A stretch of 64,000 bases of DNA from Candidatus Cloacimonadales bacterium (GTDB taxonomy: Bacteria > Cloacimonadota > Cloacimonadia > Cloacimonadales > JAIOQZ01): NCBI GenBank assembly GCA_963674825.1, contig OY771587.1, forward strand, positions 2,592,001-2,656,000, given 5' to 3'. Position 1 is the first letter of the stretch. The number at the start of each line of letters is the position of its first letter. Positions 31,881 to 44,894 of this stretch are shown one piece after another. The position numbers were made by a program, and so were the translations under genes. Under the pieces are notes generated by a model that saw nothing but the letters and a program-made list of their open reading frames with translations, was not told the origin of the DNA and searched no databases.

Positions 31881-33302
31881 TTACTTCAACACCTCAATCT
31901 TCGGCTCCACATCCTCGAACTGTGGCAATACCGTGCCGATATTCGCGTAGGCATAGAATGGATCGCACACTACATAGCTACTACCATCGTAATCGACCTT
32001 ACTTCCAGGGATCACATCGCTCAGCAGAACACCAGCAGCAAAATACCCATCGTAATCAAGAGCCACAACATCGTAGTCGGTAAGAAGCTGGATCATGCCA
32101 ATAAAAAACCGCGTCCGAGCTCTGGAATCGGCGATGCCGCTTTCGATTAAAGCGTCAGCGGAATTGCCTGATGAGGATGTAGCCTGATCCTGTCGGAATG
32201 CGGATTGGGTGAACCGCAGGATGATATTGACTGCCTGCGCGCGATTTTTTCCGGCAAGTATGGGGGAGATAGCGGTAACGAGCGATTGCTCCAGCTCAGA
32301 TGAAAAAGCGATGGGTGCAAGGTTCGATTCTTCCGGCTGACTGCTGTAGTAGTCCACGAAAGATGGATTAAAAGCAATGCTGGCTGTGTAGGTTGAGTCG
32401 TCGTAGCTGAATTCGATGGCGCGATTCTGCTGTATTTTACCGACCAGCGGTTTCTTTCCTGATCGCATGTTGAGAAGGTTGTTGGCTTTGGGATATTTGC
32501 CATCATAGGTTTTGATCTTAATCGGCTGTGCCTTGGTGTTCTCGAAATCGAGGATGTAGTATGTACGATCATCGACCATGAGGTAGCGTGTGTCGAGTAG
32601 CTCCTGATCGGTGGGCACCATAAGATAGACGGTATCCTGCTCAAACCCGAGTCGTGCGTCGTAGCCTGTTTTGAGCAGCATAAACCAGATAAATACGTTG
32701 GTTTCGCTGGGGTCGTTGGCGGTGAGCTTGGAGCCTATCTTGTGCAGGAGGCGGCAATAGCCCCAGTCGTTGAGGTTGAGGTGCTCGCGATGCTTCCCGA
32801 GTTGTTCCGAGAGATCTTCCCATGGTGTGTTCGAAAGCTTGAACCACGCGTTGGCGATCGATTTCTCTTCGATGGGCAGGCTCAAATGCATGGTAAGCGA
32901 ATCGACGTAGCAGAACTCGAGCGGCAAGCCGAAATAGTCGATCTCAAATGATGTGCATGCCGCGGCCGGTGCGTAGGCGAGCTGCTCGTAGTTGGTGGGT
33001 TGATCGGCAGTTTTCACCTTGATGGGCAGCTCGTACATCGTCTTGGCCTGGTTGAGCTCCGGAGCTTTCCGGGCTTCCACTACAGGAATTCTTTCCGGTA
33101 GATCGGGCATGGGTGTCGTTTTACCGGTCGAGAGTTCGAACTCGGTCCAGTCGCGCTCCAGGAATCCCACAAAGAGCGAGTCCTGGCTGCTGCGATAGGA
33201 TGTCCAATCGTTTGACTGCCCATCGAGCCAGTCCTGGTAATCATCAGCCGGAAGCAGACTCAATGCCACCAGCATGCATGCGAAAAACAGTATTCTCTTC
33301 AT
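31881..33302 (-). CDS. Secreted hypothetical protein with a degenerate transglutaminase-like C-terminal domain
   Basis: Signal peptide MKRILFF; LNDWGY, WFMLLKTGYDARL, Y.VCDP.Y..ANIG. Confidence 0.7.
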   Translation of the reverse strand: MKRILFFACMLVALSLLPADDYQDWLDGQSNDWTSYRSSQDSLFVGFLERDWTEFELSTGKTTPMPDLPERIPVVEARKAPELNQAKTMYELPIKVKTADQPTNYEQLAYAPAAACTSFEIDYFGLPLEFCYVDSLTMHLSLPIEEKSIANAWFKLSNTPWEDLSEQLGKHREHLNLNDWGYCRLLHKIGSKLTANDPSETNVFIWFMLLKTGYDARLGFEQDTVYLMVPTDQELLDTRYLMVDDRTYYILDFENTKAQPIKIKTYDGKYPKANNLLNMRSGKKPLVGKIQQNRAIEFSYDDSTYTASIAFNPSFVDYYSSQPEESNLAPIAFSSELEQSLVTAISPILAGKNRAQAVNIILRFTQSAFRQDQATSSSGNSADALIESGIADSRARTRFFIGMIQLLTDYDVVALDYDGYFAAGVLLSDVIPGSKVDYDGSSYVVCDPFYAYANIGTVLPQFEDVEPKIEVLK

Positions 33303-33359
33303 CGTTAACCTCGTGCCTGAAGGATGCCCCGCGCACCGATTTTCGTCAATGAAAATGAA

Positions 33360-33388
33360 TTGACATCTCCGCCCTGGCTACGTACCTT
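33360..33388 (+). promoter_or_regulatory. Candidate sigma70 promoter
   Basis: TTGACA-17 nt-TACCTT upstream of the small CxxC gene. Confidence 0.55.
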
Positions 33389-33425
33389 TTGCGGTATAAA
33401 CCAAGCAAACGCGAAAGGAGACACT

Positions 33426-33659
33426 ATGTCAGAATTCAAACCAGTAACAGCCGATCAGTGGATCGAAGACATTTTAAGGGCCTATCCCGATTCTCAGGAC
33501 TTTCTGAGCAAACACGGCATCGTGTGCGTGATGTGCGGCGAGCCGGTTTGGGGAAGCCTCGAGGAGCAGATGGAAGAAAAGGGTTTTGATGACGAAAAGA
33601 AGCAAGAGCTTGTGGCCGAACTGAATAAATTCCTTGAAGCTCGGTACGGCGAGTCTTAA
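33426..33659 (+). CDS. DUF1858-like small protein with CxxC
   Basis: SD aaggag; I..IL.AYP....FL..HGI.CV.CG....GSLEE. Confidence 0.75.
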   Translation: MSEFKPVTADQWIEDILRAYPDSQDFLSKHGIVCVMCGEPVWGSLEEQMEEKGFDDEKKQELVAELNKFLEARYGES

Positions 33660-33683
33660 AGCTTATAAAAAACAAGATTGCGG

Positions 33684-33713
33684 TTGACACGAAACAGAAT
33701 TCATGTCTATTCT
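33684..33713 (+). promoter_or_regulatory. Candidate sigma70 promoter of the WOR-Bfu operon
   Basis: TTGACA-18 nt-TATTCT, about 95 nt before the ATG at 33808. Confidence 0.5.
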
Positions 33714-33807
33714 GACCAGTTATTTCTGTTTTAACGAGATAGCGCGATAACCACTAAAAACAACACCTGTGAGAAATACGTGATTCTTGCAGAGAAGGAG
33801 GATGTGA

Positions 33808-35100
33808 ATGCCTGCGATGCAGCTCGAAAAGATGCGTCAGGCTCACAAGATTCTTGCTGATATCCCCTTCGAGATCGTGCAGATTGACCGCGGATATGCT
33901 AACCGTACCCTGCATGTCGATATCAGTTCGAATACCGTCGAGACCAAACCCGTTTCCCAGGAGATGAAGGATCTCTGGATAGGCGGTAAAGGCTTCGATC
34001 TGTGGCTGACTTTCCAGCAAATCACCAAAGACACCAAGTGGAATGACCCGGAAAATCCGCTGTGTTTCAGCTCAGGACCTCTGGGCGGAACTACCTCGTT
34101 CCCGGGCTCCGGAAAGACCATCGCAACCGCGATCTCACCACTAACCAATTCCATGATGGACTGTAATGTCGGCGGCTATTTCGGCCCCTACCTCAAATTT
34201 GCCGGTTTCGACGCACTCAGCGTGTCCGGTAAGGCAACTGAAGAGACCATCGTGATGATCGACGCCGTGAAAGGTCGAATCACCATTGAACAGGCCCCGA
34301 TGGAAAGCGTCGATTCGCACATTCTTGCCGAAGAACTCACCGATATGTATGCCGACGACGAGCTCGACAAGCGTAACATCGCCGTGATCTCTGCCGGTAG
34401 TGGCGCAGACCACAGTCGCATGGGCGTACTCAACTTCTCTTTCTACGACTGGCGTCGTCGCGTTCCCCGGCTCAAACAGGCCGGCCGTGGTGGCATCGGT
34501 ACCGTTTTCCGCGACAAGAAGCTCAAGGCCATCGTGATCAAGAATCGCGGTATTACGCCGGCATGGCGCGTTCACGAGAGCAAGCCTGCCAAAATGATGC
34601 GCCCGAAAGAGCTTATAAGAGTCACTGATGATCGTATGCAGACCATTAGCGATATCATCGCCAAATGGAGCCGCGATCCCGAGTATGTAATCGAGATGAT
34701 GCAAGATATCCAGAACGAATTCCGGTGTATTCCGCAGGCAGCCATAGACGAGCTGACCGCACAGACCGGAACACCGCGTTCCTGGCTCTATCACATCGCA
34801 ACATTCTATAAAGCGTTCAGCCTGGAAGAAAAGGGCGAGACCATCATTCAGGTCTGTATGGGGACCGCTTGTCACGTCAAGGGCTCCGCGAAGCTTCTGG
34901 ACGCGTTCCAGCGTGAGCTGGGCTGTCCCGTTGGCGGAACCACGACAGATCGCAAGTTCAGCCTGGAAGGCGTTGCCTGCCTGGGCGCATGCTCCATCGC
35001 GCCGGTTGTGAAGATCGGCGAGGAGGTTCATGGCGGCGTGCAGGTCAAGGACGTGAAAAAGCTGATCGAACAAGCAAAGAAGGAGAAGGACCATGCCTAA
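33808..35100 (+). CDS. Fusion: aldehyde:ferredoxin oxidoreductase N-terminal domain + NuoE/HydC-like [2Fe-2S] subunit
   Basis: aa 1-245 carry IGGKG, DPEN.L.F..GPL.G, SPLT, GGYFG..LKFAGFDAL, AGRGGIGTV..DKKLKAIVIK; aa ~275-430 carry IATFYKAF, CMGTACHVKG, CLGACSIAP. Confidence 0.92.
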   Translation: MPAMQLEKMRQAHKILADIPFEIVQIDRGYANRTLHVDISSNTVETKPVSQEMKDLWIGGKGFDLWLTFQQITKDTKWNDPENPLCFSSGPLGGTTSFPGSGKTIATAISPLTNSMMDCNVGGYFGPYLKFAGFDALSVSGKATEETIVMIDAVKGRITIEQAPMESVDSHILAEELTDMYADDELDKRNIAVISAGSGADHSRMGVLNFSFYDWRRRVPRLKQAGRGGIGTVFRDKKLKAIVIKNRGITPAWRVHESKPAKMMRPKELIRVTDDRMQTISDIIAKWSRDPEYVIEMMQDIQNEFRCIPQAAIDELTAQTGTPRSWLYHIATFYKAFSLEEKGETIIQVCMGTACHVKGSAKLLDAFQRELGCPVGGTTTDRKFSLEGVACLGACSIAPVVKIGEEVHGGVQVKDVKKLIEQAKKEKDHA

Positions 35101-36973
35101 GCTATCACCACACGATATTCCTCGCATCGCCGGTGAAGAAAAGGCACGTCAGGCAGCCTGGAAGGGCATGTTGATGGTCTGTACCGGTACCGGTTGCGTA
35201 TCCGCGCATGGTTTCGACATTCTCCATGCATTACAGAAAGAAATCAAGGACGCCGGACTGGACAAGGAATGGGTCGCGGTAGGCACAGGCTGTAACGGCT
35301 TCTGCGCTGCCGGTCCGATCGTGGTTGTCCAGCCGCAGGGCGTATTTTATCAGAAGGTGCAGGTCGCGGACGCTAAAGCGATCGTTGACGAGCATCTCAA
35401 GGGCGGTACGCCGGTCGAGCGCATCCTGTTCAAGGATCCTGTCAGCGGTGTGGTAGCCCATACGATGGACGAGATCGGCTTCTTCCGCAAACAGCAGTTG
35501 ATCGCGCTCCGCAACAAGGGTCTCATCGATCCCGAGAATATCCAGCACTACATCGCGCGTGGCGGATACGAAGCGTTACGCAAGGTTCTGGAGCGGAAAG
35601 AACCGGAAATGGTCATTCAGGAAGTGATCGCATCCGGTATTCGCGGACGTGGTGGCGGTGGTTTCCCGACCGGCATCAAATGGAAATCCGGTCGCAAGGC
35701 TGCCGAAGAGCGTAAGGAAGAAATCTATGTGGTCTGTAACGCGGACGAGGGCGATCCCGGTGCATACATGGACCGCAGTATCATCGAGACCGATCCGCAC
35801 TCGGTGCTGGAAGGTCTGCTGATCGGTGGTTTTGCCGTGGGCGCGAAAGAAGGCTTCGTCTATATCCGTAAAGAATATCCGCTGGCTATGGATCGACTGC
35901 ACATCGCGATCGACCAGGCTCGCGAGATGGGCCTGCTGGGCAAAGACATCCTTGGTTCGGGCTTCGATTTCGATATCCACGTGCATCGCGGCGCAGGCGC
36001 GTTCGTCTGTGGCGAATCGACCGCACTCATGGCCTCCATGTCAGGTCGTGCGGGTGAGCCGCGCGCCAAGTATGTCCACAACGTCGAATATGGCTATCGC
36101 GACAAGCCCACTGTGCTTAACAACGTTGAGACCTGGGCAAATATCCCGGTGATCCTCGAAAAGGGCGCGCAGTGGTTTGCAAGCATTGGCTCCGGCGACG
36201 TGAGCGAAAACCCGTGGAACGGCTCCAGCGGTGCGAAAGTGTTCTCGCTGGTAGGGGATATCCGCAATACGGGTCTCGTTGAAGCGCCGATGGGCATCTC
36301 ACTGCGAGAGATCATCGAAGATATCGGCGGTGGCATCCCGAACGGGCGGCAGTTCAAGGCCGTGCAGACGGGTGGCCCCAGTGGTGGCTGCATTCCCGCA
36401 TCCATGCTGGATATGACCGTCGATTTCGATTCGCTGACCGACGCCGGCTCCATGATGGGCTCAGGCGGCATGATCGTAATGGACGACCATACTTGTATGG
36501 TTGACGTGGCGCGCTATTTCATCGACTTCCTCGTCGATGAGAGCTGCGGTAAGTGCACGCCTTGCCGTGAGGGACTTTTCCATATGCGGAACATCCTTCA
36601 GCGCATCTGTGACGGGAAAGGCAAGGAAGGCGACATCCAGACACTTGAAGAGCTAGCGTATACGATTCGCGAGACAAGCCTCTGTCAGCTCGGTGCGAGC
36701 GCACCCAATCCGGTGCTGTCTACGCTGCGTTATTTCCGTGAAGAATACGAAGAACACATTCGAGATAAAACGTGCCGTGCGGGAGTCTGCAAGGCATTGA
36801 TACACTACGAGATCAACGACAAGTGCGTAGGCTGTACGGCGTGCGCGAAGGCCTGCCCGGTAGATGCAATTCAGGGCGAGGTCAAGAAATTGCACACCAT
36901 CGATCTCGAGAAGTGCATCAAGTGCGGCATCTGCTATGAAACCTGTAAGTTCGATGCAGTGGAGGTGAAGTAA
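35093..36973 (+). CDS. HydB/NuoF-like (BfuB) NAD(H)/FMN-binding flavoprotein with N-terminal [2Fe-2S] and C-terminal 2x[4Fe-4S]
   Basis: CTGTGC...GCNGFC; GIRGRGGGGFPTG; NADEGDPGAYMDR; GAGAFVCGE; GGPSGGC; SCGKCTPCREG; HIRDKTCRAGVC; CVGCTACAKACP; CIKCGICYETC. Confidence 0.95.
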   Translation: MPKLSPHDIPRIAGEEKARQAAWKGMLMVCTGTGCVSAHGFDILHALQKEIKDAGLDKEWVAVGTGCNGFCAAGPIVVVQPQGVFYQKVQVADAKAIVDEHLKGGTPVERILFKDPVSGVVAHTMDEIGFFRKQQLIALRNKGLIDPENIQHYIARGGYEALRKVLERKEPEMVIQEVIASGIRGRGGGGFPTGIKWKSGRKAAEERKEEIYVVCNADEGDPGAYMDRSIIETDPHSVLEGLLIGGFAVGAKEGFVYIRKEYPLAMDRLHIAIDQAREMGLLGKDILGSGFDFDIHVHRGAGAFVCGESTALMASMSGRAGEPRAKYVHNVEYGYRDKPTVLNNVETWANIPVILEKGAQWFASIGSGDVSENPWNGSSGAKVFSLVGDIRNTGLVEAPMGISLREIIEDIGGGIPNGRQFKAVQTGGPSGGCIPASMLDMTVDFDSLTDAGSMMGSGGMIVMDDHTCMVDVARYFIDFLVDESCGKCTPCREGLFHMRNILQRICDGKGKEGDIQTLEELAYTIRETSLCQLGASAPNPVLSTLRYFREEYEEHIRDKTCRAGVCKALIHYEINDKCVGCTACAKACPVDAIQGEVKKLHTIDLEKCIKCGICYETCKFDAVEVK

Positions 36974-38964
36974 TGGAAAAGGTCGATATCGTAATCAACG
37001 GTAAGAAGACTACCGTCCCGAAAGACACCTACCTGCTGAAAGCGATCCAAAATGCCGGACTCACCGTTCCGACGCTGTGCCACCACAAGGATCTGACGCC
37101 TTCGGGCACCTGCCGTCTATGCGTGGTCGAGATCGAACAGAACGGGCGCAAGAAGATCGTGACGAGCTGCAACTATCCCGTTCGCAGCGAGATCAGCGTG
37201 GAGACCGACAGCGAGCGCATCAAGCAGCATCGCAAAGTCCTGGCTGAGATGTACCTGGGGCGCTGGCCGAACGTACCGGTTATCCAGGACGTAGCCAAAC
37301 GCTGTGGTGTGACCGAAAGCCGCTTCACCAGCGAGCTCACCGAAGAGAGCGAGAAAGCTTGCATCCTCTGCGGTCATTGCGTGCGGGGTTGCCATGAATT
37401 CATCATGGAAGACATCCTCGATTTTGCGGGACGCGGCATCAAGCGTCACCTGACGATGCCGTTTGGAGAGGTAGATCCGCATTGTATAGGCTGCACGAGC
37501 TGTGCCTATGTATGCCCGACCGGGGCGATCGAGGTTATCGACGATCTCCAGAATCCGGTCAATCCCAAGCTGATTCGCGACTACGGTATGCGTATCAACG
37601 CCGAGATGGCGACACTCGACCAGAACCAATGCCGCATGCGCGACGTTGGTACCGCCAACATTGTGGACGTGATGGACGCTTATGATCTTTTACCAGTGCA
37701 CAACTATAAGTTCGGTAAGCATGAAGAGACTTGGAAGATCGACTCTAAAATGCTGAAGAGAGAGTACTTTACACAGCAAATGCCTGATGGCTGCTGGAAA
37801 GGTTGCTCGATGGCGTGTGCGAAAGCGGTAGATGATTTTGAACTCAAGACCGGACCCTACAAAGGACAGAAAGTCTGTGTGGACGGACCAGAGTACGAAA
37901 CCGCGGCTGGTGCGGCAAATATGGGCTGCTTCGATGCTGACTTCCTGGTTGAATTCAACTTCTACTGCGATACGTACGGTGTGGATACCATCTCGGTGGC
38001 TACCTGTACGGCATTCGTGATGGAGGCGTTTGAAGCAGGCCAGATAACGACAGAACATACCGGCGGACTCGAGCTTAAATTCGGTGCTACCGACGAAGTG
38101 CTGGAGTTGTTGCATCAGATGGCGCGCGGCGAAGGATTTGGGGTGGATGTCGGGCAAGGTATCCGCTGGCTGAAAGAGAAGTGGGCTCGTGAGTACGGTG
38201 CCGACGCAGCGTTCCTGCAAGATATCGGTATGGAGGTCAAGGGCCTCGAATACTCCGAGTATGTTTGTAAAGAATCGCTGGCGCAGCAGATCGGATATTC
38301 CGCGGCTGTAAAAGGACCGCAGCACGACGAGGCCTGGCTGATTTTTATGGATATGGTCAACAACCAGATTCCGACATTTGAGGACAAAGCAGAAGCGCTC
38401 TACTACTTTCCGCTGTGGAGAACCTGGTTTGGTCTTCTGGGCCTGTGCAAGCTGATCTGGAACGACGTTGTTCCGGCAGACAACAGCAAATATGCACCAC
38501 CAGTAGCTGCGAAGGTTCCGGGGCATGTCGAGGACTTCTTTAAGTTCTTCGAAGGCATGACGGGACAACCGCTGGACGAAGAGAAGATGCTGGCGCAGTC
38601 GGCAAGGGTTCACAACCTTCAGCGGTTGATGTCACGCATGCTGGGCTATGGTACGAGAAAGGACGATATTCCTCCTTATCGCGCCGTAGGACCGGTTACC
38701 GAAGAGGAATTCCTTTCACGGCAGGATCGTTTCGATAAGCAGTTAAAGGAAACAATCGGCGTCGATCCCGAAAAGATGACGACCGAAGAGAAGATGAAGA
38801 CGCTACGAGAATATCGCATGCAGCAATACAACAAGGCTCTCGATGCCGTTTATCAGAGACGTGGCTGGACACCTGATGGTGTACCGACAGTCGAACGCCT
38901 GAAAGAACTGGGCATCGATATTCCTGAGCTGGTAGCAATCGCGAAGGATGATAAGACAGCCTGA
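36973..38964 (+). CDS. Fusion: HydA/NuoG-like N-terminal Fe-S module + aldehyde:ferredoxin oxidoreductase C-terminal domains
   Basis: PTLC...GTCRLC...SC, CILCGHCVRGC, CIGCTSCAYVCP; then LPVHNY, CWKGCSMAC, GPEYET, DTYGVDTIS, GLCK, Y..RGW..DGVPT.E.LKELGI. Confidence 0.92.
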   Translation: MEKVDIVINGKKTTVPKDTYLLKAIQNAGLTVPTLCHHKDLTPSGTCRLCVVEIEQNGRKKIVTSCNYPVRSEISVETDSERIKQHRKVLAEMYLGRWPNVPVIQDVAKRCGVTESRFTSELTEESEKACILCGHCVRGCHEFIMEDILDFAGRGIKRHLTMPFGEVDPHCIGCTSCAYVCPTGAIEVIDDLQNPVNPKLIRDYGMRINAEMATLDQNQCRMRDVGTANIVDVMDAYDLLPVHNYKFGKHEETWKIDSKMLKREYFTQQMPDGCWKGCSMACAKAVDDFELKTGPYKGQKVCVDGPEYETAAGAANMGCFDADFLVEFNFYCDTYGVDTISVATCTAFVMEAFEAGQITTEHTGGLELKFGATDEVLELLHQMARGEGFGVDVGQGIRWLKEKWAREYGADAAFLQDIGMEVKGLEYSEYVCKESLAQQIGYSAAVKGPQHDEAWLIFMDMVNNQIPTFEDKAEALYYFPLWRTWFGLLGLCKLIWNDVVPADNSKYAPPVAAKVPGHVEDFFKFFEGMTGQPLDEEKMLAQSARVHNLQRLMSRMLGYGTRKDDIPPYRAVGPVTEEEFLSRQDRFDKQLKETIGVDPEKMTTEEKMKTLREYRMQQYNKALDAVYQRRGWTPDGVPTVERLKELGIDIPELVAIAKDDKTA

Positions 38965-39565
38965 TCTGTTTAGTCGCAATGTGCCTGGCTCCACCGAAGT
39001 GCTTCAACGTGCTACGGTGGGGCTGGCGGGTTGCGGCGGACTTGGCTCCAATGTTGCCGTTGCGCTGATTCGCGCCGGGATCGGGAAGCTTGTTCTGGCA
39101 GATTACGATCGCGTCGAGCCAAGCAACCTGAACCGTCAGCACTACTTCCAATCCGATATCGGTAAACTCAAGACAATTGCCCTTGCTGAACACTTACAAA
39201 ACATCAATCCCGAAATTGAATTGAAATTAATCTCGAAAAAGCTTGCACCTTCGGATATTGCAGTAAACTTTGGCTCGGCTGACATCCTGATCGAGGCATT
39301 CGACAGGGCAGAGGCCAAGCAATGGCTGATCGAAGCCTGGTGCCGGCTGTTTCCCGATCGTCCGATCATAGTAGGGAACGGCATTGCAGGCTTGGGCGAG
39401 ACCAGCTCCATTAAGGTCCGGCAAATGGGCAACATCTGGTTCTGCGGAGACGGATGCAGCGACATGAGCATTGGACTGAGTGCGCCACGAGTAGGCATCG
39501 TAGCAATGATGCAGGCCAATGTGGCAATATCGATTCTTACAAAGGGAGTACATGATACTGGTTAA
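38948..39565 (+). CDS. thiF: Sulfur-carrier adenylyltransferase, ThiF/MoeB family (short type)
   Basis: GCGGLGSN, D.DRVEPSNLNRQ, EAFD.AE.K, APRV..VA.MQAN; overlaps the upstream gene. Confidence 0.9.
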   Translation: MIRQPDLFSRNVPGSTEVLQRATVGLAGCGGLGSNVAVALIRAGIGKLVLADYDRVEPSNLNRQHYFQSDIGKLKTIALAEHLQNINPEIELKLISKKLAPSDIAVNFGSADILIEAFDRAEAKQWLIEAWCRLFPDRPIIVGNGIAGLGETSSIKVRQMGNIWFCGDGCSDMSIGLSAPRVGIVAMMQANVAISILTKGVHDTG

Positions 39566-39752
39566 TGACCGAGATGAGGTCGAATTCCGGGATAACATGA
39601 CCGTCCAGGATGTTCTGGACGAAATGGGGTACGATTGGGCGCTGTTGACAGTTACCGTCAATGACACCTATGTTCCTCAGGAAGAATATCAACATTATCA
39701 GGTGCCTGACGGTGCTGATTTTAAAGCCATGCATCTCTTTCATGGCGGATGA
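39552..39752 (+). CDS. thiS: ThiS/MoaD-family sulfur carrier protein
   Basis: 66 aa ubiquitin-like pattern (MTVQDVL, VNDTYVP) ending in GG. Confidence 0.85.
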   Translation: MILVNDRDEVEFRDNMTVQDVLDEMGYDWALLTVTVNDTYVPQEEYQHYQVPDGADFKAMHLFHGG

Positions 39753-39933
39753 CCTGACAGTCATTCGTGTGGGGTTAGTTGAATCCTATGAAAACACATT
39801 CTTTTTCACTTGTACTTGATCGTAATCCACGAATCAATGCGCATTTCATGAGCGCTTTCGCCAACGAATAGCCCCAACTCTCTCATTCTATCCGACACTA
39901 CCAATCTACTTATACAACGGAGGAAGACTACAC

Positions 39934-41460
39934 ATGCAAGAATTCTTAACACGACTCGGCATCAAGGAAGTGAATCCTGGAGCTTATTGCGGACGCTGGC
40001 TGGACACACAGGGCGAAATGATCGAAGTGTACTCACCGGTTGATGATTCTCTGATCGCGAAAGTAAGATCCGCTACCGCGGAAGACTATGACACCGTTGC
40101 CAAAGAAGCGCAGGAAGCCTTCAAGGTATGGCGTATGATCCCGGCACCCAAGCGTGGTGAAATCGTGCGTCAGCTCGGTGAAGCACTGCGTGAGCAGAAA
40201 GAAGACCTGGGCAAGCTCGTTACGCTTGAAATGGGGAAAATTCTCACAGAAGGACTCGGCGAAGTCCAGGAAATGATAGATATGGCTGATTTCTGCGTGG
40301 GACTTTCCCGTCAGCTTTACGGCATGACAACCCATTCCGAACGCCCATACCACCGTATGTACGAACAGTGGCATCCTATGGGTGTAGTCGGCATCATCTC
40401 CGCGTTCAATTTCCCAGTCGCGGTGTGGTCATGGAACGCGTTCATCGCGGCTGTTTGCGGTGACACCATGATTTGGAAACCATCCTCATCAACTCCGCTT
40501 ACCGCCATCGCTGTACAGAACATTGTTCACAAAGTGCTGGAAGCAAACGATATCCCGAAAGGTATCTTTGGAATGGTGATCGGTCGCGGTAGTGTAATCG
40601 GTGAGAAGCTTATCAACGATCCGCAGATTCCGCTCGTTAGCGCAACCGGTAGCTGTGCCATGGGTAAGAGAGTTCATCAGGCTGCGGCAAAGCGCTATGC
40701 TCAGGTGATCCTCGAGCTGGGCGGCAACAATGCTGTTGTCGTGATGGAAGACGCCAATGTCGAGCTCGCTCTCAAGGCAGTGCTCTTTGGCGCAGTGGGA
40801 ACAGCCGGACAGCGCTGTACCTCCACTCGTCGCGTGCTGCTTCACGAAGACCTGCACGACAAGTTTGTCGAATCGCTCAAGAAGGCGTACAGCTCCGTGC
40901 CGATCGGCAATCCGCTGGACAGCAAGACACTTATGGGTCCGCTCGTCGATGGAGCTGCGGTCAAGGCGTACCAGAATGCAATCGAAAAGGTCAAGGAACA
41001 GGGCGGCGAGATCGTCTACGGTGGCGAAGTGATCGAATCCGGTGTGCCGGGTAAGCTCTATGTTAAGCCTACCATCGTGCTGGCGGAGAACGAATGGCAG
41101 ATCGTTCAGGATGAAACATTCGCTCCGATTCTGTACATCATCAAGATCAAGGACATCGACCACGCGATCGAGCTGCACAACGCGGTTCCGCAGGGTCTAT
41201 CATCCTCAATCTTCACCAATAATATGCGCTACAGCGAACGCTTCCTCTCGCATGCCGGTAGTGACTGCGGTATTGCCAACGTCAATATCGGAACTTCCGG
41301 TGCTGAGATCGGCGGTGCGTTCGGTGGTCAGAAAGAAACCGGTGGTGGACGTGAAGCCGGCAGTGATGCCTGGAAGGCCTACATGCGCCGTCAAACCAAC
41401 ACCATCAACTGGTCGACAGAAATTCCGCTCGCACAGGGTGTCAAATTCGATATCGATTGA
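39934..41460 (+). CDS. Aldehyde dehydrogenase, ALDH7 (aminoadipate-semialdehyde/piperideine-6-carboxylate dehydrogenase-like)
   Basis: PAPKRGEIVRQ, SAFNFPVAVW.WN, LELGGNNA, GTAGQRCT, ETFAP, GTSGAEIGGAFGG, PLAQG.KF. Confidence 0.93.
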   Translation: MQEFLTRLGIKEVNPGAYCGRWLDTQGEMIEVYSPVDDSLIAKVRSATAEDYDTVAKEAQEAFKVWRMIPAPKRGEIVRQLGEALREQKEDLGKLVTLEMGKILTEGLGEVQEMIDMADFCVGLSRQLYGMTTHSERPYHRMYEQWHPMGVVGIISAFNFPVAVWSWNAFIAAVCGDTMIWKPSSSTPLTAIAVQNIVHKVLEANDIPKGIFGMVIGRGSVIGEKLINDPQIPLVSATGSCAMGKRVHQAAAKRYAQVILELGGNNAVVVMEDANVELALKAVLFGAVGTAGQRCTSTRRVLLHEDLHDKFVESLKKAYSSVPIGNPLDSKTLMGPLVDGAAVKAYQNAIEKVKEQGGEIVYGGEVIESGVPGKLYVKPTIVLAENEWQIVQDETFAPILYIIKIKDIDHAIELHNAVPQGLSSSIFTNNMRYSERFLSHAGSDCGIANVNIGTSGAEIGGAFGGQKETGGGREAGSDAWKAYMRRQTNTINWSTEIPLAQGVKFDID

Positions 41461-41825: not shown

Positions 41826-42950
41826 TTACTCGGAGATGATCTCGACATTGGCGCGGGGAATCATAACCCGTTCGCCGGTTTCGAGTTCGGCCTCGAGGAT
41901 ACGCACGAGGGTCTCTGATTCGACCTTTGTGAGTTCCTCAGGCATTGCGATGACCTTACCGATCTTACCGAAGTTGGGCTGGCGGATCACGCGTATGACC
42001 TTGCCGACTTCGATCATGGGCAGCTCGGATTCCTGCATTACAAGCTCGTCTTCCCTGAATTCGATCGGCCTGATAATCTCGGGGCGGATAACGCCGGCAC
42101 GAATCTGTGTGAAGCCGTGCATTGAGACGTTCTTACCCTGGAATCTCTTGAGCAGGTCGAAAGTCTTGTTTGCCATCTTGATCGGTCCGAAGCCTTCGGT
42201 AACCACGATGGTGAGTCCGATTTCTTCATGGCCTGTGATGGCGACACCGATGTCGTATCCGAGGAGCTTCTTGAGATCCTGGTCGTGGATACCGCCGGTG
42301 ATGATACCACTCACACCCACTTTCTGTGCTTTCATGATGACTTCGTAAGGCAGCATGGAGCCGGTAACAACGATTTTGCCTTTGTGGCTATCGTTGAGCA
42401 TGTCAGGCTTGAGGACTTCGTCGGCTGTGTTAACGACAACATCGATCTCGGCATTGATTTCGCCGCCGATACCGAAGATACCCTGGATGTAGGATGATTT
42501 ATTCTCGATAACGACGCCCTGCTCGGGGATAACCTCGACCACAACGCCATCGATGAACGCTTTGACTTCAACCGGGATACGCGGTTCGTTGAGAAGAACC
42601 TGGCCAGTGTGCCGGGAGATGCTCTGCACCTCACCCGCCGTGGGTGAGCGGACGGTAGTCTTGAACATACCGAGGAATCCGTTCGTCTGAGCGAGAATCT
42701 GGCCCTGGGTGATCTGGTCGCCTTCTTTCACTCTGAGGTATTGATCTACGAGCTGTGCCGTGACACCCAGCTTGTTCGCCAGGTTGATCGGGACAACTTT
42801 ACCCGGAAGCATGGTGACCGCGACGATCTGGTCGGCTTTGACCTTATCGCCTTTCTTGACCTTAACTTCGCCTTTCAACGGAAGGATTCGTTCTTTACGT
42901 ACGATGGTGCTGTCAGTTACGGCAAGTCCTTGCGAAAATGATTTTCCCAT
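41826..42950 (-). CDS. Conserved hypothetical protein (barrel-sandwich hybrid repeats, C-terminal KOW-like), partner of glmL
   Basis: V.VKKGDKV, VKEGDQI..GQILA, SPTAGEV, IQGIFGIGGE, TQIRAGVIRPE, VGKVIRVIRQPNFGKIGKV. Confidence 0.75.
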   Translation of the reverse strand: MGKSFSQGLAVTDSTIVRKERILPLKGEVKVKKGDKVKADQIVAVTMLPGKVVPINLANKLGVTAQLVDQYLRVKEGDQITQGQILAQTNGFLGMFKTTVRSPTAGEVQSISRHTGQVLLNEPRIPVEVKAFIDGVVVEVIPEQGVVIENKSSYIQGIFGIGGEINAEIDVVVNTADEVLKPDMLNDSHKGKIVVTGSMLPYEVIMKAQKVGVSGIITGGIHDQDLKKLLGYDIGVAITGHEEIGLTIVVTEGFGPIKMANKTFDLLKRFQGKNVSMHGFTQIRAGVIRPEIIRPIEFREDELVMQESELPMIEVGKVIRVIRQPNFGKIGKVIAMPEELTKVESETLVRILEAELETGERVMIPRANVEIISE

Positions 42951-42960
42951 GCGATCCTCC

Positions 42961-44853
42961 CTATTTCAGTATTTCTTCGGGGTACACATCAAGCTCACGC
43001 ATCCACTTCTTCAGAAGTCTACGACGCTCAGCATGATCGGTCGGCAGAACGAACGGATTACGGCCACGTGTATCAATCACGATACCCACGACGCCGCCCC
43101 AGAGGGTGGTTTCCAATTCCTGATTCTTACCGGCACCGATGTCGAGTCCCCGACCCGGTTTAAGTTTAGCTTTGGCGGTTTCGCCGACTCCACACGGAAT
43201 CAGGCGCATCTCGCCGAATGGAATGTCTTCTTTGAATGATTTTCCGCCGGGAAGCTCTATCTCGACGGTCAGTGCGGTTCCCTTGCCCTTGAAGGGGCCA
43301 ACCGGCGCGACGACGGTTCCGAGGTAGATCATACAGTCTTTGTCGAACACTTCGGTCGCAGCTTTTTCGCTGATCTCGGCCAGCACGCCAAGGTGCGGCA
43401 TCATGAAGATACTATCGACGCCAAGGCGGGTGATGCCTTCGGGAAGAAACGCGTCGATCAGCATAAGAACGGTCTGATTACGGCGCGGTGCGTGCGATGC
43501 CACACCACCGGAACCGACCAGCAGGTCGAGAGACATCATGTCAACGATGGTTCCGCCAGAGACGCTCTGGCTGAATGCTTCGGAGATTTCGCGCTTCTTC
43601 TGCGTACCCTTGAGGGTCACGGCAAATTCTTTGTGCTGCACGAATGCGAGCCGCAGCGCTTCCTTGGCGATCGCCTGCTCCAGAACCAGCTCTTCCAGCT
43701 TCTGCGGAATGGTGGTCGGGCGGATCATCTTGTTCTTGATCATGTTGCGCAGTTCGGATTCGTCGATATCGAGCGGAACCCAGCGCAGGATGTTTTCCAG
43801 ACCGGCGGAGGCGAGAACGTTGGAGATCGAGTAACTCATACCCAGGTTCGCGCTCACGGTACGGTTGAAGATGTATTTCGGTGGCTCGCCTTCTTTGACG
43901 TCTTTATCCTTGAATACGGAGAAAACGTCGGTGGTTGCGCCGCCAATGTCCACGCCCAGCACCTCGATGCCTTCATTACGGGCGATGGTTTGCATGATGT
44001 TACCCACAGCAGCCGGAGTCGGCATGATGGGGATATTCTGCAGCTTGCCGTCGAGCGGACCGCGGGTCCACTGCATCAGCTTGTTGTAGCCGGGGGCTTG
44101 CTGCATAACGTGCTCCATGAAAAGATCATGGATTTTGTCGCGCGCTGGTCCGAGGTTTTCCACTTCGAGAGTGGGCCGGATGTTCTCAGTAAGAATCAGG
44201 TCGCTCTTCTCTGCGAGCGTTTCCTTGATGATATCCTGCGCGTCTGTGTTACCTGCGTAAATAACCGGAAGCTTGTAGCTCGAACCGAGGCGCGGCTTGG
44301 GATCCGCGGCTGCGACGAGCTCTGCAAGCTCGGCAACATGCTTCGTGGTACCGCCATCGACCCCCCCCGCCATCAGGATCATATCTGGGCGCAGATGACG
44401 AATACGTTCAATCTTCTCGTAGTTGGCACGCTGATCGTTGCTTGCGATCAGGTCCATCACGATCGCGCCAGCGCCAAGCGCGGCACGTTCGGCACTTTCA
44501 CCCGTCATTCGGGCGACAACACCTGTTACCATCATCTGAAGACCACCACCAGCGCTACTGGTCGATACGTACGCATCGACACCAACATCGCCGTTACGAG
44601 GGATGATGATTTCTTCGTTCTCGATGAACTTGATGTTCTTGTTGCCATACTTGAGCTGCGCAAGCTCTTCAAGCTCCTGCACCGAGTTGATGACACCTTT
44701 GGTCACGTCGTTGAGCGGCGCTTCAACAGTCGTAGGCGCCTCACCGCGAACAGTCTGACGAAATTCGCCATCAACGTACTCGATGAGGATGGCTTTGGTC
44801 GTCGTACTGCCGCAGTCGGTGGCGACAATTCTCCGTAACTGCTCATTTGCCAT
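42961..44853 (-). CDS. glmL: GlmL/MutL-family (glutamate mutase L-like) ASKHA ATPase
   Basis: DCGSTTTKA, SSAGGGL, AALGAGA, L.GGVDGG, PTPAAV, DIGGATTDVFS, RTVSANLGMSYS, GSGG; ATG 44853 after SD ggag. Confidence 0.85.
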   Translation of the reverse strand: MANEQLRRIVATDCGSTTTKAILIEYVDGEFRQTVRGEAPTTVEAPLNDVTKGVINSVQELEELAQLKYGNKNIKFIENEEIIIPRNGDVGVDAYVSTSSAGGGLQMMVTGVVARMTGESAERAALGAGAIVMDLIASNDQRANYEKIERIRHLRPDMILMAGGVDGGTTKHVAELAELVAAADPKPRLGSSYKLPVIYAGNTDAQDIIKETLAEKSDLILTENIRPTLEVENLGPARDKIHDLFMEHVMQQAPGYNKLMQWTRGPLDGKLQNIPIMPTPAAVGNIMQTIARNEGIEVLGVDIGGATTDVFSVFKDKDVKEGEPPKYIFNRTVSANLGMSYSISNVLASAGLENILRWVPLDIDESELRNMIKNKMIRPTTIPQKLEELVLEQAIAKEALRLAFVQHKEFAVTLKGTQKKREISEAFSQSVSGGTIVDMMSLDLLVGSGGVASHAPRRNQTVLMLIDAFLPEGITRLGVDSIFMMPHLGVLAEISEKAATEVFDKDCMIYLGTVVAPVGPFKGKGTALTVEIELPGGKSFKEDIPFGEMRLIPCGVGETAKAKLKPGRGLDIGAGKNQELETTLWGGVVGIVIDTRGRNPFVLPTDHAERRRLLKKWMRELDVYPEEILK

Positions 44854-44894
44854 AGAGTCCTCCATTTATCTGAGAAATTATTCTATACTCTGGT

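Follow-up and report, generated by a model that had tools for sequence, protein, structure and literature searches.

We analysed a stretch of 64,000 nucleotides (nt) of a Candidatus Cloacimonadales bacterium (assembly GCA_963674825.1, contig OY771587.1, forward strand, positions 2,592,001 to 2,656,000), hereafter called the window, in which all coordinates are counted from the first letter. Three overlapping genes of this window encode an aldehyde oxidoreductase (AOR) of the WOR family that is cut into two polypeptides, and both pieces are fused to subunits of a Bfu core. Our preferred reading, to which we assign a probability of about 0.62, is an electron-bifurcating, WorS-free aldehyde oxidoreductase of the composition (AOR-N-BfuC)(BfuB)(BfuA-AOR-C) that has one catalytic site per Bfu core and works with an imported cofactor. 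The layout is real, conserved and apparently undescribed, and it is a variant of Wor-Bfu rather than new chemistry. An earlier, sequence-only reading knew of no paper on such a split WOR-Bfu, and none was found in the literature searched, i.e. outside the subscription journals; the supplement of PMC9304861 may list such operons among its unassigned clades 1-17.

Gene 1 (33808-35100, 430 amino acids (aa)), gene 2 (35093-36973, 626 aa) and gene 3 (36973-38964, 663 aa) lie on the plus strand and overlap by 8 nt and 1 nt, respectively; the list of open reading frames (ORFs) agrees here with the sequence-only reading. AOR domain 1 and BfuC make up gene 1, gene 2 encodes a complete BfuB, in gene 3 BfuA is joined to AOR domains 2-3, and the Pfam check bears out the fusions described earlier. 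Domain 1 occupies residues ~1-250 of gene 1 (33808..34557); it is identified by AFOR_N at 33-246 (PF02730, model positions 2-198/199, E 7e-48), by alignment to 1aor and by the residue table described below. It is followed by a linker of ~25 residues and a BfuC/HydC/NuoE-like domain with the C1 [2Fe-2S] ligands (34558..35100; 2Fe-2S_thioredx at 281-423, PF01257, E 5e-42). BfuB/HydB (35093..36973) shows Complex1_51K, SLBB, NADH_4Fe-4S and two Fer4 domains together with the ligand motifs given below. The Fe-S arm of BfuA (36973..37542) carries A1 [2Fe-2S] and two [4Fe-4S] clusters, A2 and A4 (Fer2_4, PF13510, at 2-80; Fer4 dicluster at 130-187; motif scan). Behind it are AOR domains 2-3 (37543..38964; AFOR_C at 207-648, PF01314, model positions 5-385/385, E 3.5e-90), which are also supported by alignments to 1aor and 8c0z and by Foldseek. 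The motif KAIVIK ends at 34542 as had been claimed, and the NPVNPK junction is present, with a start at ~37552 instead of the ~37545 given before.

The best PDB matches of the BfuC part are HydC (8a6t_C) and WorC (9mqx_C), and the BfuA part is best matched by WorA (9mqx_A, E 5.6e-41); 9mqx_B and 9mqx_C are the second best matches for the B and C parts. The two AOR halves align to residues 6-206 and to residues 241-459 plus the C-terminal end of the Pyrococcus furiosus AOR (1aor), i.e. they are collinear with an intact enzyme, as proposed earlier. The host genome (single contig, 99.57% complete) gives no other AFOR_N or AFOR_C match, therefore each half is without any other partner. Two further genes that the sequence-only reading did not list belong to the same gene run. 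One is a ThiF/E1-like adenylyltransferase at 38948..39565 (+), which overlaps gene 3 by 17 nt (NF006395, 218 bits against a cut-off of 159). The other is a ThiS/MoaD-like sulfur carrier with a Gly-Gly end at 39552..39752 (+), which overlaps thiF by 14 nt (ORF, PF02597); a carrier of this kind is called WorX in PMC13328260.

The conservation of the active site was checked at 15 WOR positions in 48 split pairs. Of the 15, 14 are identical in all 48 pairs, including T243, E313, Y427 and H448 (numbering of the P. furiosus enzyme, PfAOR) and the four cluster cysteines. In gene 3 these second-shell residues are T227, E309, Y430 and H451 (48 of 48 pairs), and C274, C278, C282 and C492 are the invariant ligands of the catalytic [4Fe-4S] cluster; D333 and D338 are found in the same gene. 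The motifs read earlier fall at these places, i.e. CxxxCxxxC at C274/278/282, EYET at 307-310 and DxxGxDTIS at D333-S341. Gene 1 keeps N120 (PfAOR N93) and R227 (R182) and has K103 at the R76 position. Pterin- or Mg-binding positions of PfAOR are also R76, R182, D338, D343 and D489; among them R182, D338 and D343 are kept, as is N93, and R76 is Lys throughout the split pairs. PMC13328260 and PMC12096430 count Thr243, Glu313, Tyr427 and His448 among the conserved residues, and N93 is given as a pterin-/Mg-binding residue in PMC12096430. A side observation concerns 14 intact relatives, mostly from Bacteroidales (L049, L052, L062, L064, L069-L071, L073-L078 and L080), in which the Asp of DxxGxD equivalent to D343 is Cys; this is possibly an extra metal ligand.

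In the BfuB copy of the window, B5 is formed by C30/35/67/71, B1 by C485/488/491/531 and the B2/Zn site by C468/H555/C561/C566; the loop that binds flavin mononucleotide (FMN) reads NADEGDPGAYM, the SLBB motif is GGPSGG, and B3/B4 correspond to two CxxCxxCxxxC motifs at 578 and 608. The copy thus keeps B1-B5, C1 and the FMN loop, which is the full BfuBC core set; B1-B5 of BfuB are the defining Bfu core according to PMC9304861. BfuA has the A1 cysteines and two CxxCxxCxxxC motifs (A2, A4) like WorA; the motif scan found neither a His-ligated A3 nor the zinc finger or adaptor helix of WorA.

The two AOR halves are predicted to reassemble. Modelling of residues 1-260 of gene 1 with residues 190-663 of gene 3 gave an interface score (ipSAE) of 0.93, the best of three controls reached 0.00, and the score indicates compatibility and not binding because single-chain AORs have been solved. 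Of 157 solved complexes 116 pass the ipSAE mark used, and of 215 mismatched pairs 2 do so. At least 93% of the contacts are common to the AOR-N/AOR-C runs, and the confidence of the partners (predicted local distance difference test, pLDDT) is at least 88, so that the earlier suggestion of an active site assembled from two subunits has gained support from the modelling. A Foldseek search with the AlphaFold model of gene 3 matched FOR, WorL, AOR and WorA.

The distribution of the layout was investigated by a locus scan of species genomes, in which the best 80 of 581 confirmed candidates were analysed. BfuA-AOR-C in one ORF occurs in 41 of these 80 loci, so the double fusion that the earlier reading wanted searched for recurs widely; the remaining 39 are intact WORs of ~715 aa with ~60% identity. 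Upstream of BfuA-AOR-C, 15 of the 41 split loci have N-C and B as separate genes, as is the case in the window, 19 have N-C-B in one ORF, one has AOR-N without BfuBC and 6 are cut by contig ends. Going by their record titles, the split loci come among others from Krumholzibacteriota, Aminicenantes, Myxococcota, Eisenbacteria, Bacillota, Synergistia, Elusimicrobia, Bdellovibrionales and Cloacimonadota. Among the best matches listed, all 120 homologues of gene 1 (62-89% identity) have AFOR_N with a NuoE-like domain and all 120 homologues of gene 3, one of them the window's own protein, have Fer2_4 with AFOR_C. The gene thiS accompanies 34 and thiF 29 of the 41 split loci. Sixteen further regions of the host's phylum were chosen for AFOR_C frames of ~660-690 aa; 7 are three-gene loci (2 duplicate earlier ones), 7 are four-gene loci in which AOR-N is a gene of its own, and the other 2 are cut. 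Layouts with two, three and four genes therefore exist, and the double fusion, real as it is, does not define the system: four-gene forms have a free-standing AOR-N and two-gene forms fuse N-C-B. A single-chain N-C-B-A-C form was scored in none of the proteins of 1162-3315 aa, which is weak evidence for its absence. As for individual loci, L134 and L137-L142 have a free-standing AOR domain-1 gene of ~270 aa followed by bfuC, bfuB and bfuA-AOR-C; P0241 is an intact relative (862 aa) with an insertion of ~95 aa inside AOR-C; in P0256 AOR-C is preceded by FG-GAP repeats, possibly through mis-assembly.

In trees rooted on more distant intact representatives (30-60% identity) the split forms nest inside the intact WORs, therefore the intact form is ancestral. 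The break point is the short linker joining domains 1 and 2, and no residues were lost. The fused two- and three-gene forms make up one clade with a support of 100 in the Shimodaira-Hasegawa-like approximate likelihood ratio test (SH-aLRT; quick tree, 35 rows). The split BfuBs are sister to the BfuBs of three classical worS-L-C-B-A-X operons (support 0.999, in a tree whose outgroups are these three operons and four BfuBs of the host only), which makes the cassette one of the Wor-Bfu kind. The four-gene form groups with the fused forms in AOR-N (1.0), BfuA (0.91) and BfuB (0.83) by FastTree, and in AOR-N with 85 by SH-aLRT. Its AOR-C (L134, L137-L142) groups with an intact paralogue, i.e. its ancestry differs from that of the fused forms' AOR-C, and the approximately unbiased (AU) test rejects a single split clade for AOR-C (p-AU 0.0065). 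Direct descent of the fused form from the four-gene form is thus not established, since the AOR-C result conflicts with the other trees. Either there was one insertion and a later replacement of AOR-C in the four-gene branch, or there were two origins. The sequence-only reading, according to which a hydC-hydB-hydA' cassette was inserted into an aor gene and fused at both ends, is upheld in the origin from an intact aor; its single insertion agrees with the trees, as does one other history. An alternative origin may be a duplication and complementary loss around a C-B-A cassette.

The preferred reading can be put as a working mechanism. A worCBA-type Bfu cassette would have come into the linker between domains 1 and 2 of a WOR gene of ~715 aa, and the two halves would re-associate non-covalently and rebuild the bis-pyranopterin site with its [4Fe-4S] cluster. 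An aldehyde would be oxidised at the W(Mo)-bis-pterin between the two chains, and the electrons would pass to the WOR [4Fe-4S] cluster (C274/278/282/492), then to the tethered ferredoxin-like A4/A2 domain, which would replace WorS or a ferredoxin, and through A1 into the BfuB/BfuC core, which would reduce NAD+ and, via B3/B4, ferredoxin. We infer this path by analogy with WorABCSL. ThiF and ThiS/WorX probably serve the maturation of the cofactor or of its sulfur, and the imported cofactor would also supply the two xanthine-oxidase-family enzymes of the host. The substrates may be aldehydes or semialdehydes from amino-acid fermentation, a tentative suggestion that draws on the reported metabolism of the phylum (bioRxiv 10.1101/2021.10.08.463351). 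We note that 5-6 of the 39 intact relatives have sarcosine-oxidase-like neighbours and that the intact relatives L047, L048, L058 and L082 have neighbouring genes of the sarcosine-oxidase or proline-dehydrogenase-like type, which hints at a substrate derived from amino acids.

Besides the limit on the docking score given above, several observations weigh against this reading, and they bear on three other explanations. A relic without activity or a chimera produced by the assembly, as the lack of cofactor genes in the host might suggest, we regard as very improbable, and the chimera is already refuted: 41 of 80 loci, which belong to many phyla, share the junctions, as do two same-genus genomes, and one contig of a public run covers 33000-40000 with no joints or differences, although this run may be the source sample and so not independent; another run covers the locus in patches and was left aside. 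Likewise there are no stops or frameshifts in the locus, and the ratio of nonsynonymous to synonymous substitution rates (dN/dS) is ~0.03-0.07 for each of the five domains in comparison to two same-genus genomes, both without moeA; these ratios are rough, as dS is near saturation in several pairs. Neither the chimeric assembly nor the relaxed selection that could have overturned the sequence-only reading was thus encountered. An unlikely but more serious explanation is that the split WOR is active without bifurcating in vivo, with simple reduction of NAD+ or ferredoxin, and that the Bfu cassette is mainly a scaffold or wire that could not be lost once it had been fused to essential halves. The FMN/NADH loop is missing in 13 of the 34 relatives with a readable BfuB and B3/B4 in 5, B5 is also missing in several, and the WOR residues are invariant; L038 retains AOR-N and BfuA-AOR-C and lacks BfuBC altogether. 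The family therefore tolerates the loss of bifurcation. Moreover, bifurcation is thermodynamically unneeded for aldehyde oxidation (PMC12318220). The window copy, however, keeps B1-B5, C1 and the FMN loop, its BfuB is under selection as strong as that on the AOR halves (dN/dS ~0.04), and non-bifurcating homologues are without B2-B5 according to PMC9304861. The bifurcation proposed earlier is accordingly predicted for the window copy and not for the family as a whole. The AlphaFold model of gene 3 falls below a pLDDT of 50 over residues 132-193, i.e. in the A2/A4 domain, so it is unreliable for the distance between A4 and the WOR cluster. The second pterin-binding Asp of PfAOR, D489, is replaced by Gly in 47 of the 48 split pairs and by Ala in the remaining one; both this change and R76 to Lys are common to the intact parent clade.

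The remaining difficulty is the cofactor. Profile searches of the host genome found no MoeA, MoaC or MoaE and no MoaA above the cut-off; MoeA, MoaC and MoaE are present together in 11 of 14 control genomes. A tblastn search of the host with related MoeA, MoaA, MoaB, MoaC, MOSC and TupA-like proteins returned generic radical S-adenosylmethionine and ATP-binding cassette (ABC) matches only, and neither TupA, WtpA or ModA nor an uptake system was found in the host. The term tungsten-type used earlier fits the protein family only; the host is without known pyranopterin synthesis or tungstate uptake. It does retain mobB, fdhD, a MobA-like transferase and the two xanthine-oxidase-family enzymes. In 151 genomes of the phylum (at least 85% complete; kin are not independent) AFOR_C occurs in 109, xanthine-oxidase-family domains in 131, and moeA and moaC in the same 12, of which 10 carry an AOR; the two genes were not found in 99 of the 109 AOR-bearing genomes. 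In genus g14 none of 5 genomes has either the AOR or the xanthine-oxidase-family domains. With no known synthesis genes, either import or an unknown route of synthesis must supply the cofactor. That the lineage has no classical W-bis-pyranopterin, with a cofactor from an unrecognised route (possibly through ThiF/ThiS) or another metal site and maybe a non-aldehyde substrate, is consistent with these counts, with purifying selection on an operon without genes for the molybdenum cofactor (Moco) and with the D489G and R76K changes of the clade. This explanation is a little less probable still than a non-bifurcating enzyme, and we are just as doubtful of the corresponding form of the enzyme, a three-chain, nanowire-free bifurcating WOR with an active site built from two polypeptides, whose cofactor Cloacimonadota make without MoaA, MoaC, MoaE and MoeA or whose site is not a pyranopterin one. 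Against it, the active-site positions are the same in moeA-positive and moeA-negative hosts, and close relatives lie beside wtpABC and in Moco-positive genomes: wtpABC and modE adjoin the operon in 6-7 split loci, L008, L011 and L015 being examples with wtpABC, and moeA was found in 31 of the 41 genomes with a split locus and in 23 of the 39 with an intact one, whose completeness is not given. Since the missing Moco genes affect all pterin enzymes of the phylum, uptake is the simpler explanation. Import of a finished or nearly finished cofactor is thus most likely for the host, with synthesis by an unrecognised route possible, and, read most simply, the host imports the cofactor for an ordinary W-pterin enzyme.

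Several candidates for the missing functions were considered and set aside. The examined ABC binding proteins of the host read as PstS and sulfate-type Sbp/CysTWA and not as TupA/WtpA (the examination covered matches other than the weaker PF13531 ones, L156 and L157), a PF00994 match is CinA-like by its sequence, and a PF00384 match reads as an Nfn-like BfuA. In the host mobB stands directly behind four membrane-protein genes headed by DUF6754, with fdhD ~4.5 kb further (G000:C1:158000-162040; L178:13007-17040, minus strand). DUF6754 occurs in 144 of the 151 phylum genomes and in none of the 6 genomes of the Moco-producing family f12; as a cofactor importer it is non-discriminating, since the 144 include genomes without pterin enzymes, and the run points only weakly to a transporter. 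We rejected the capture of imported cofactor as the purpose of the split, because moeA matches are also missing from the genomes of 20 intact relatives. Classical worS-L-C-B-A-X operons with mobB, moeA and wtpABC, i.e. Class IV WORs, occur in family f12 of the host's phylum (L171-L173).

Further observations concern the Bfu genes and the surroundings of the operon. Loop loss was seen in L005, L006, L014, L019-L021, L025, L026, L036, L037, L042, L044 and L045, which belong to different branches; these BfuBs are sometimes also without B5 and B3/B4, retain the Fe-S ligands of B1 and B2 and are possibly flavin-less Bfu wires. The host genome has six Complex1_51K genes, including a tandem bfuC-bfuB pair (one B without B2-B5) and an Nfn-like Bfu (L175-L177). 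A sigma-70-like consensus, TTGACA-18-TATTCT, lies ~95 nt before gene 1 (33684..33713, +); the scan found 4 such sites where 5.8 are expected by chance, promoter and terminator counts in general are at chance level, and it is the position alone that makes this site a suggestive candidate. Rfam gave no matches in the window at gathering thresholds. Upstream of the operon a 77-aa protein with a CxxC motif (33426-33659, +) is weakly similar, below the cut-off, to the hybrid-cluster-protein-associated redox disulfide domain and is found there in same-genus genomes only. Right after the operon is an L-piperidine-6-carboxylate dehydrogenase gene (ALDH7-type; NF050084 above cut-off; 39934-41460, +), which related loci do not have as a conserved neighbour and which was excluded. 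The minus strand at 41826-44865 encodes a GlmL/MutL-like accessory protein of a mutase and a protein like the RnfC barrel.

The layout adds a WOR class that is invisible to surveys requiring both domains in one protein and that is common in anaerobic lineages of many phyla. With three chains, and two in some relatives, it would be the smallest bifurcating aldehyde oxidoreductase and a simpler object than WorABC(SL)3 for studying how electrons enter the Bfu core, for which the relatives without the flavin loop, B5 or B3/B4 offer natural deletion variants. The natural split demonstrates that separate production of WOR domain 1 is possible; this may be of use in studies of cofactor loading and in the engineering of biocatalysts acting on acids and aldehydes. 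Pterin enzymes that are under selection throughout a phylum without pterin synthesis make cofactor cross-feeding between prokaryotes directly testable, and if a cofactor route without Moa/MoeA were true, they would give a handle on an unknown pathway common to the whole phylum.

Among known systems WorABCSL of Acetomicrobium mobile and Eubacterium limosum (Class IV WOR with Type 2 Bfu; PDB 9MQX; PMC12318220, PMC13328260) shares the catalytic family and the Bfu core with the enzyme of the window, as well as a BfuA with A1/A2/A4 and no A3 (PMC12318220) and the gene order C-B-A followed by worX. It differs in that the window WorL is cut into two polypeptides, the zinc finger and adaptor helix of WorA are replaced by AOR domains 2-3, and the WOR half belongs to a clade that is far removed (structural alignment with 9mqx_D, 20% identity). 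Class IV/Type 2 enzymes have five subunits with WorS and a separate intact WorL, whereas the locus in the window has no WorS gene; its enzyme would therefore form no nanowire, and the stoichiometry would be 1:1 instead of 1:3. PMC13328260 recognises WorL by IPR013983 and IPR001203 in one protein and Class IV by five subunits. The window has the two domains in genes 1 and 3, so the split layout falls outside this classification. The Type 1 Bfu enzymes (FeFe-HydABC, Nfn-Bfu, Fdh-Bfu as well as F420-Bfu; PMC9304861) also carry a catalytic domain on BfuA, with electrons proposed to pass through A4, and the accessible text of that paper has no Type 1 Wor-Bfu. Unlike them, BfuA of the window carries two-thirds of the catalytic unit, i.e. 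domains 2-3 only, and domain 1, which is predicted to dock, is on another chain, either joined to BfuC or, in relatives, encoded by a separate gene.

The organisms with 'orphan molybdoproteins' in PMC6147048 share the Moco-less pattern. There incomplete sequencing is kept as a possible cause and the accessible text gives no architecture, whereas in our analysis near-complete genomes throughout the phylum show the pattern; Table S1 of that paper scores Ca. Cloacimonas acidaminovorans negative in both Mo transporters and Moco synthesis and gives it six Moco-dependent enzymes. The single-chain AOR and FOR of P. furiosus (1AOR, 1B25) and the Class I WORs share the fold (Foldseek E 2e-13 to 6e-11), the second-shell T/E/Y/H, the four cluster cysteines and the neighbouring worX and thiF; they differ by a single chain of ~605-620 aa, the use of free ferredoxin, 20-24% identity and Asp489, which is Gly in the window clade. 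The intact WORs of ~715 aa from Bacteroidales, Clostridia, Bipolaricaulota and Cloacimonadota (L046-L084, L143-L146) consist of one ORF with no Bfu genes nearby, and with ~60% identity and the same signature residues represent the direct parent clade of the split enzyme.

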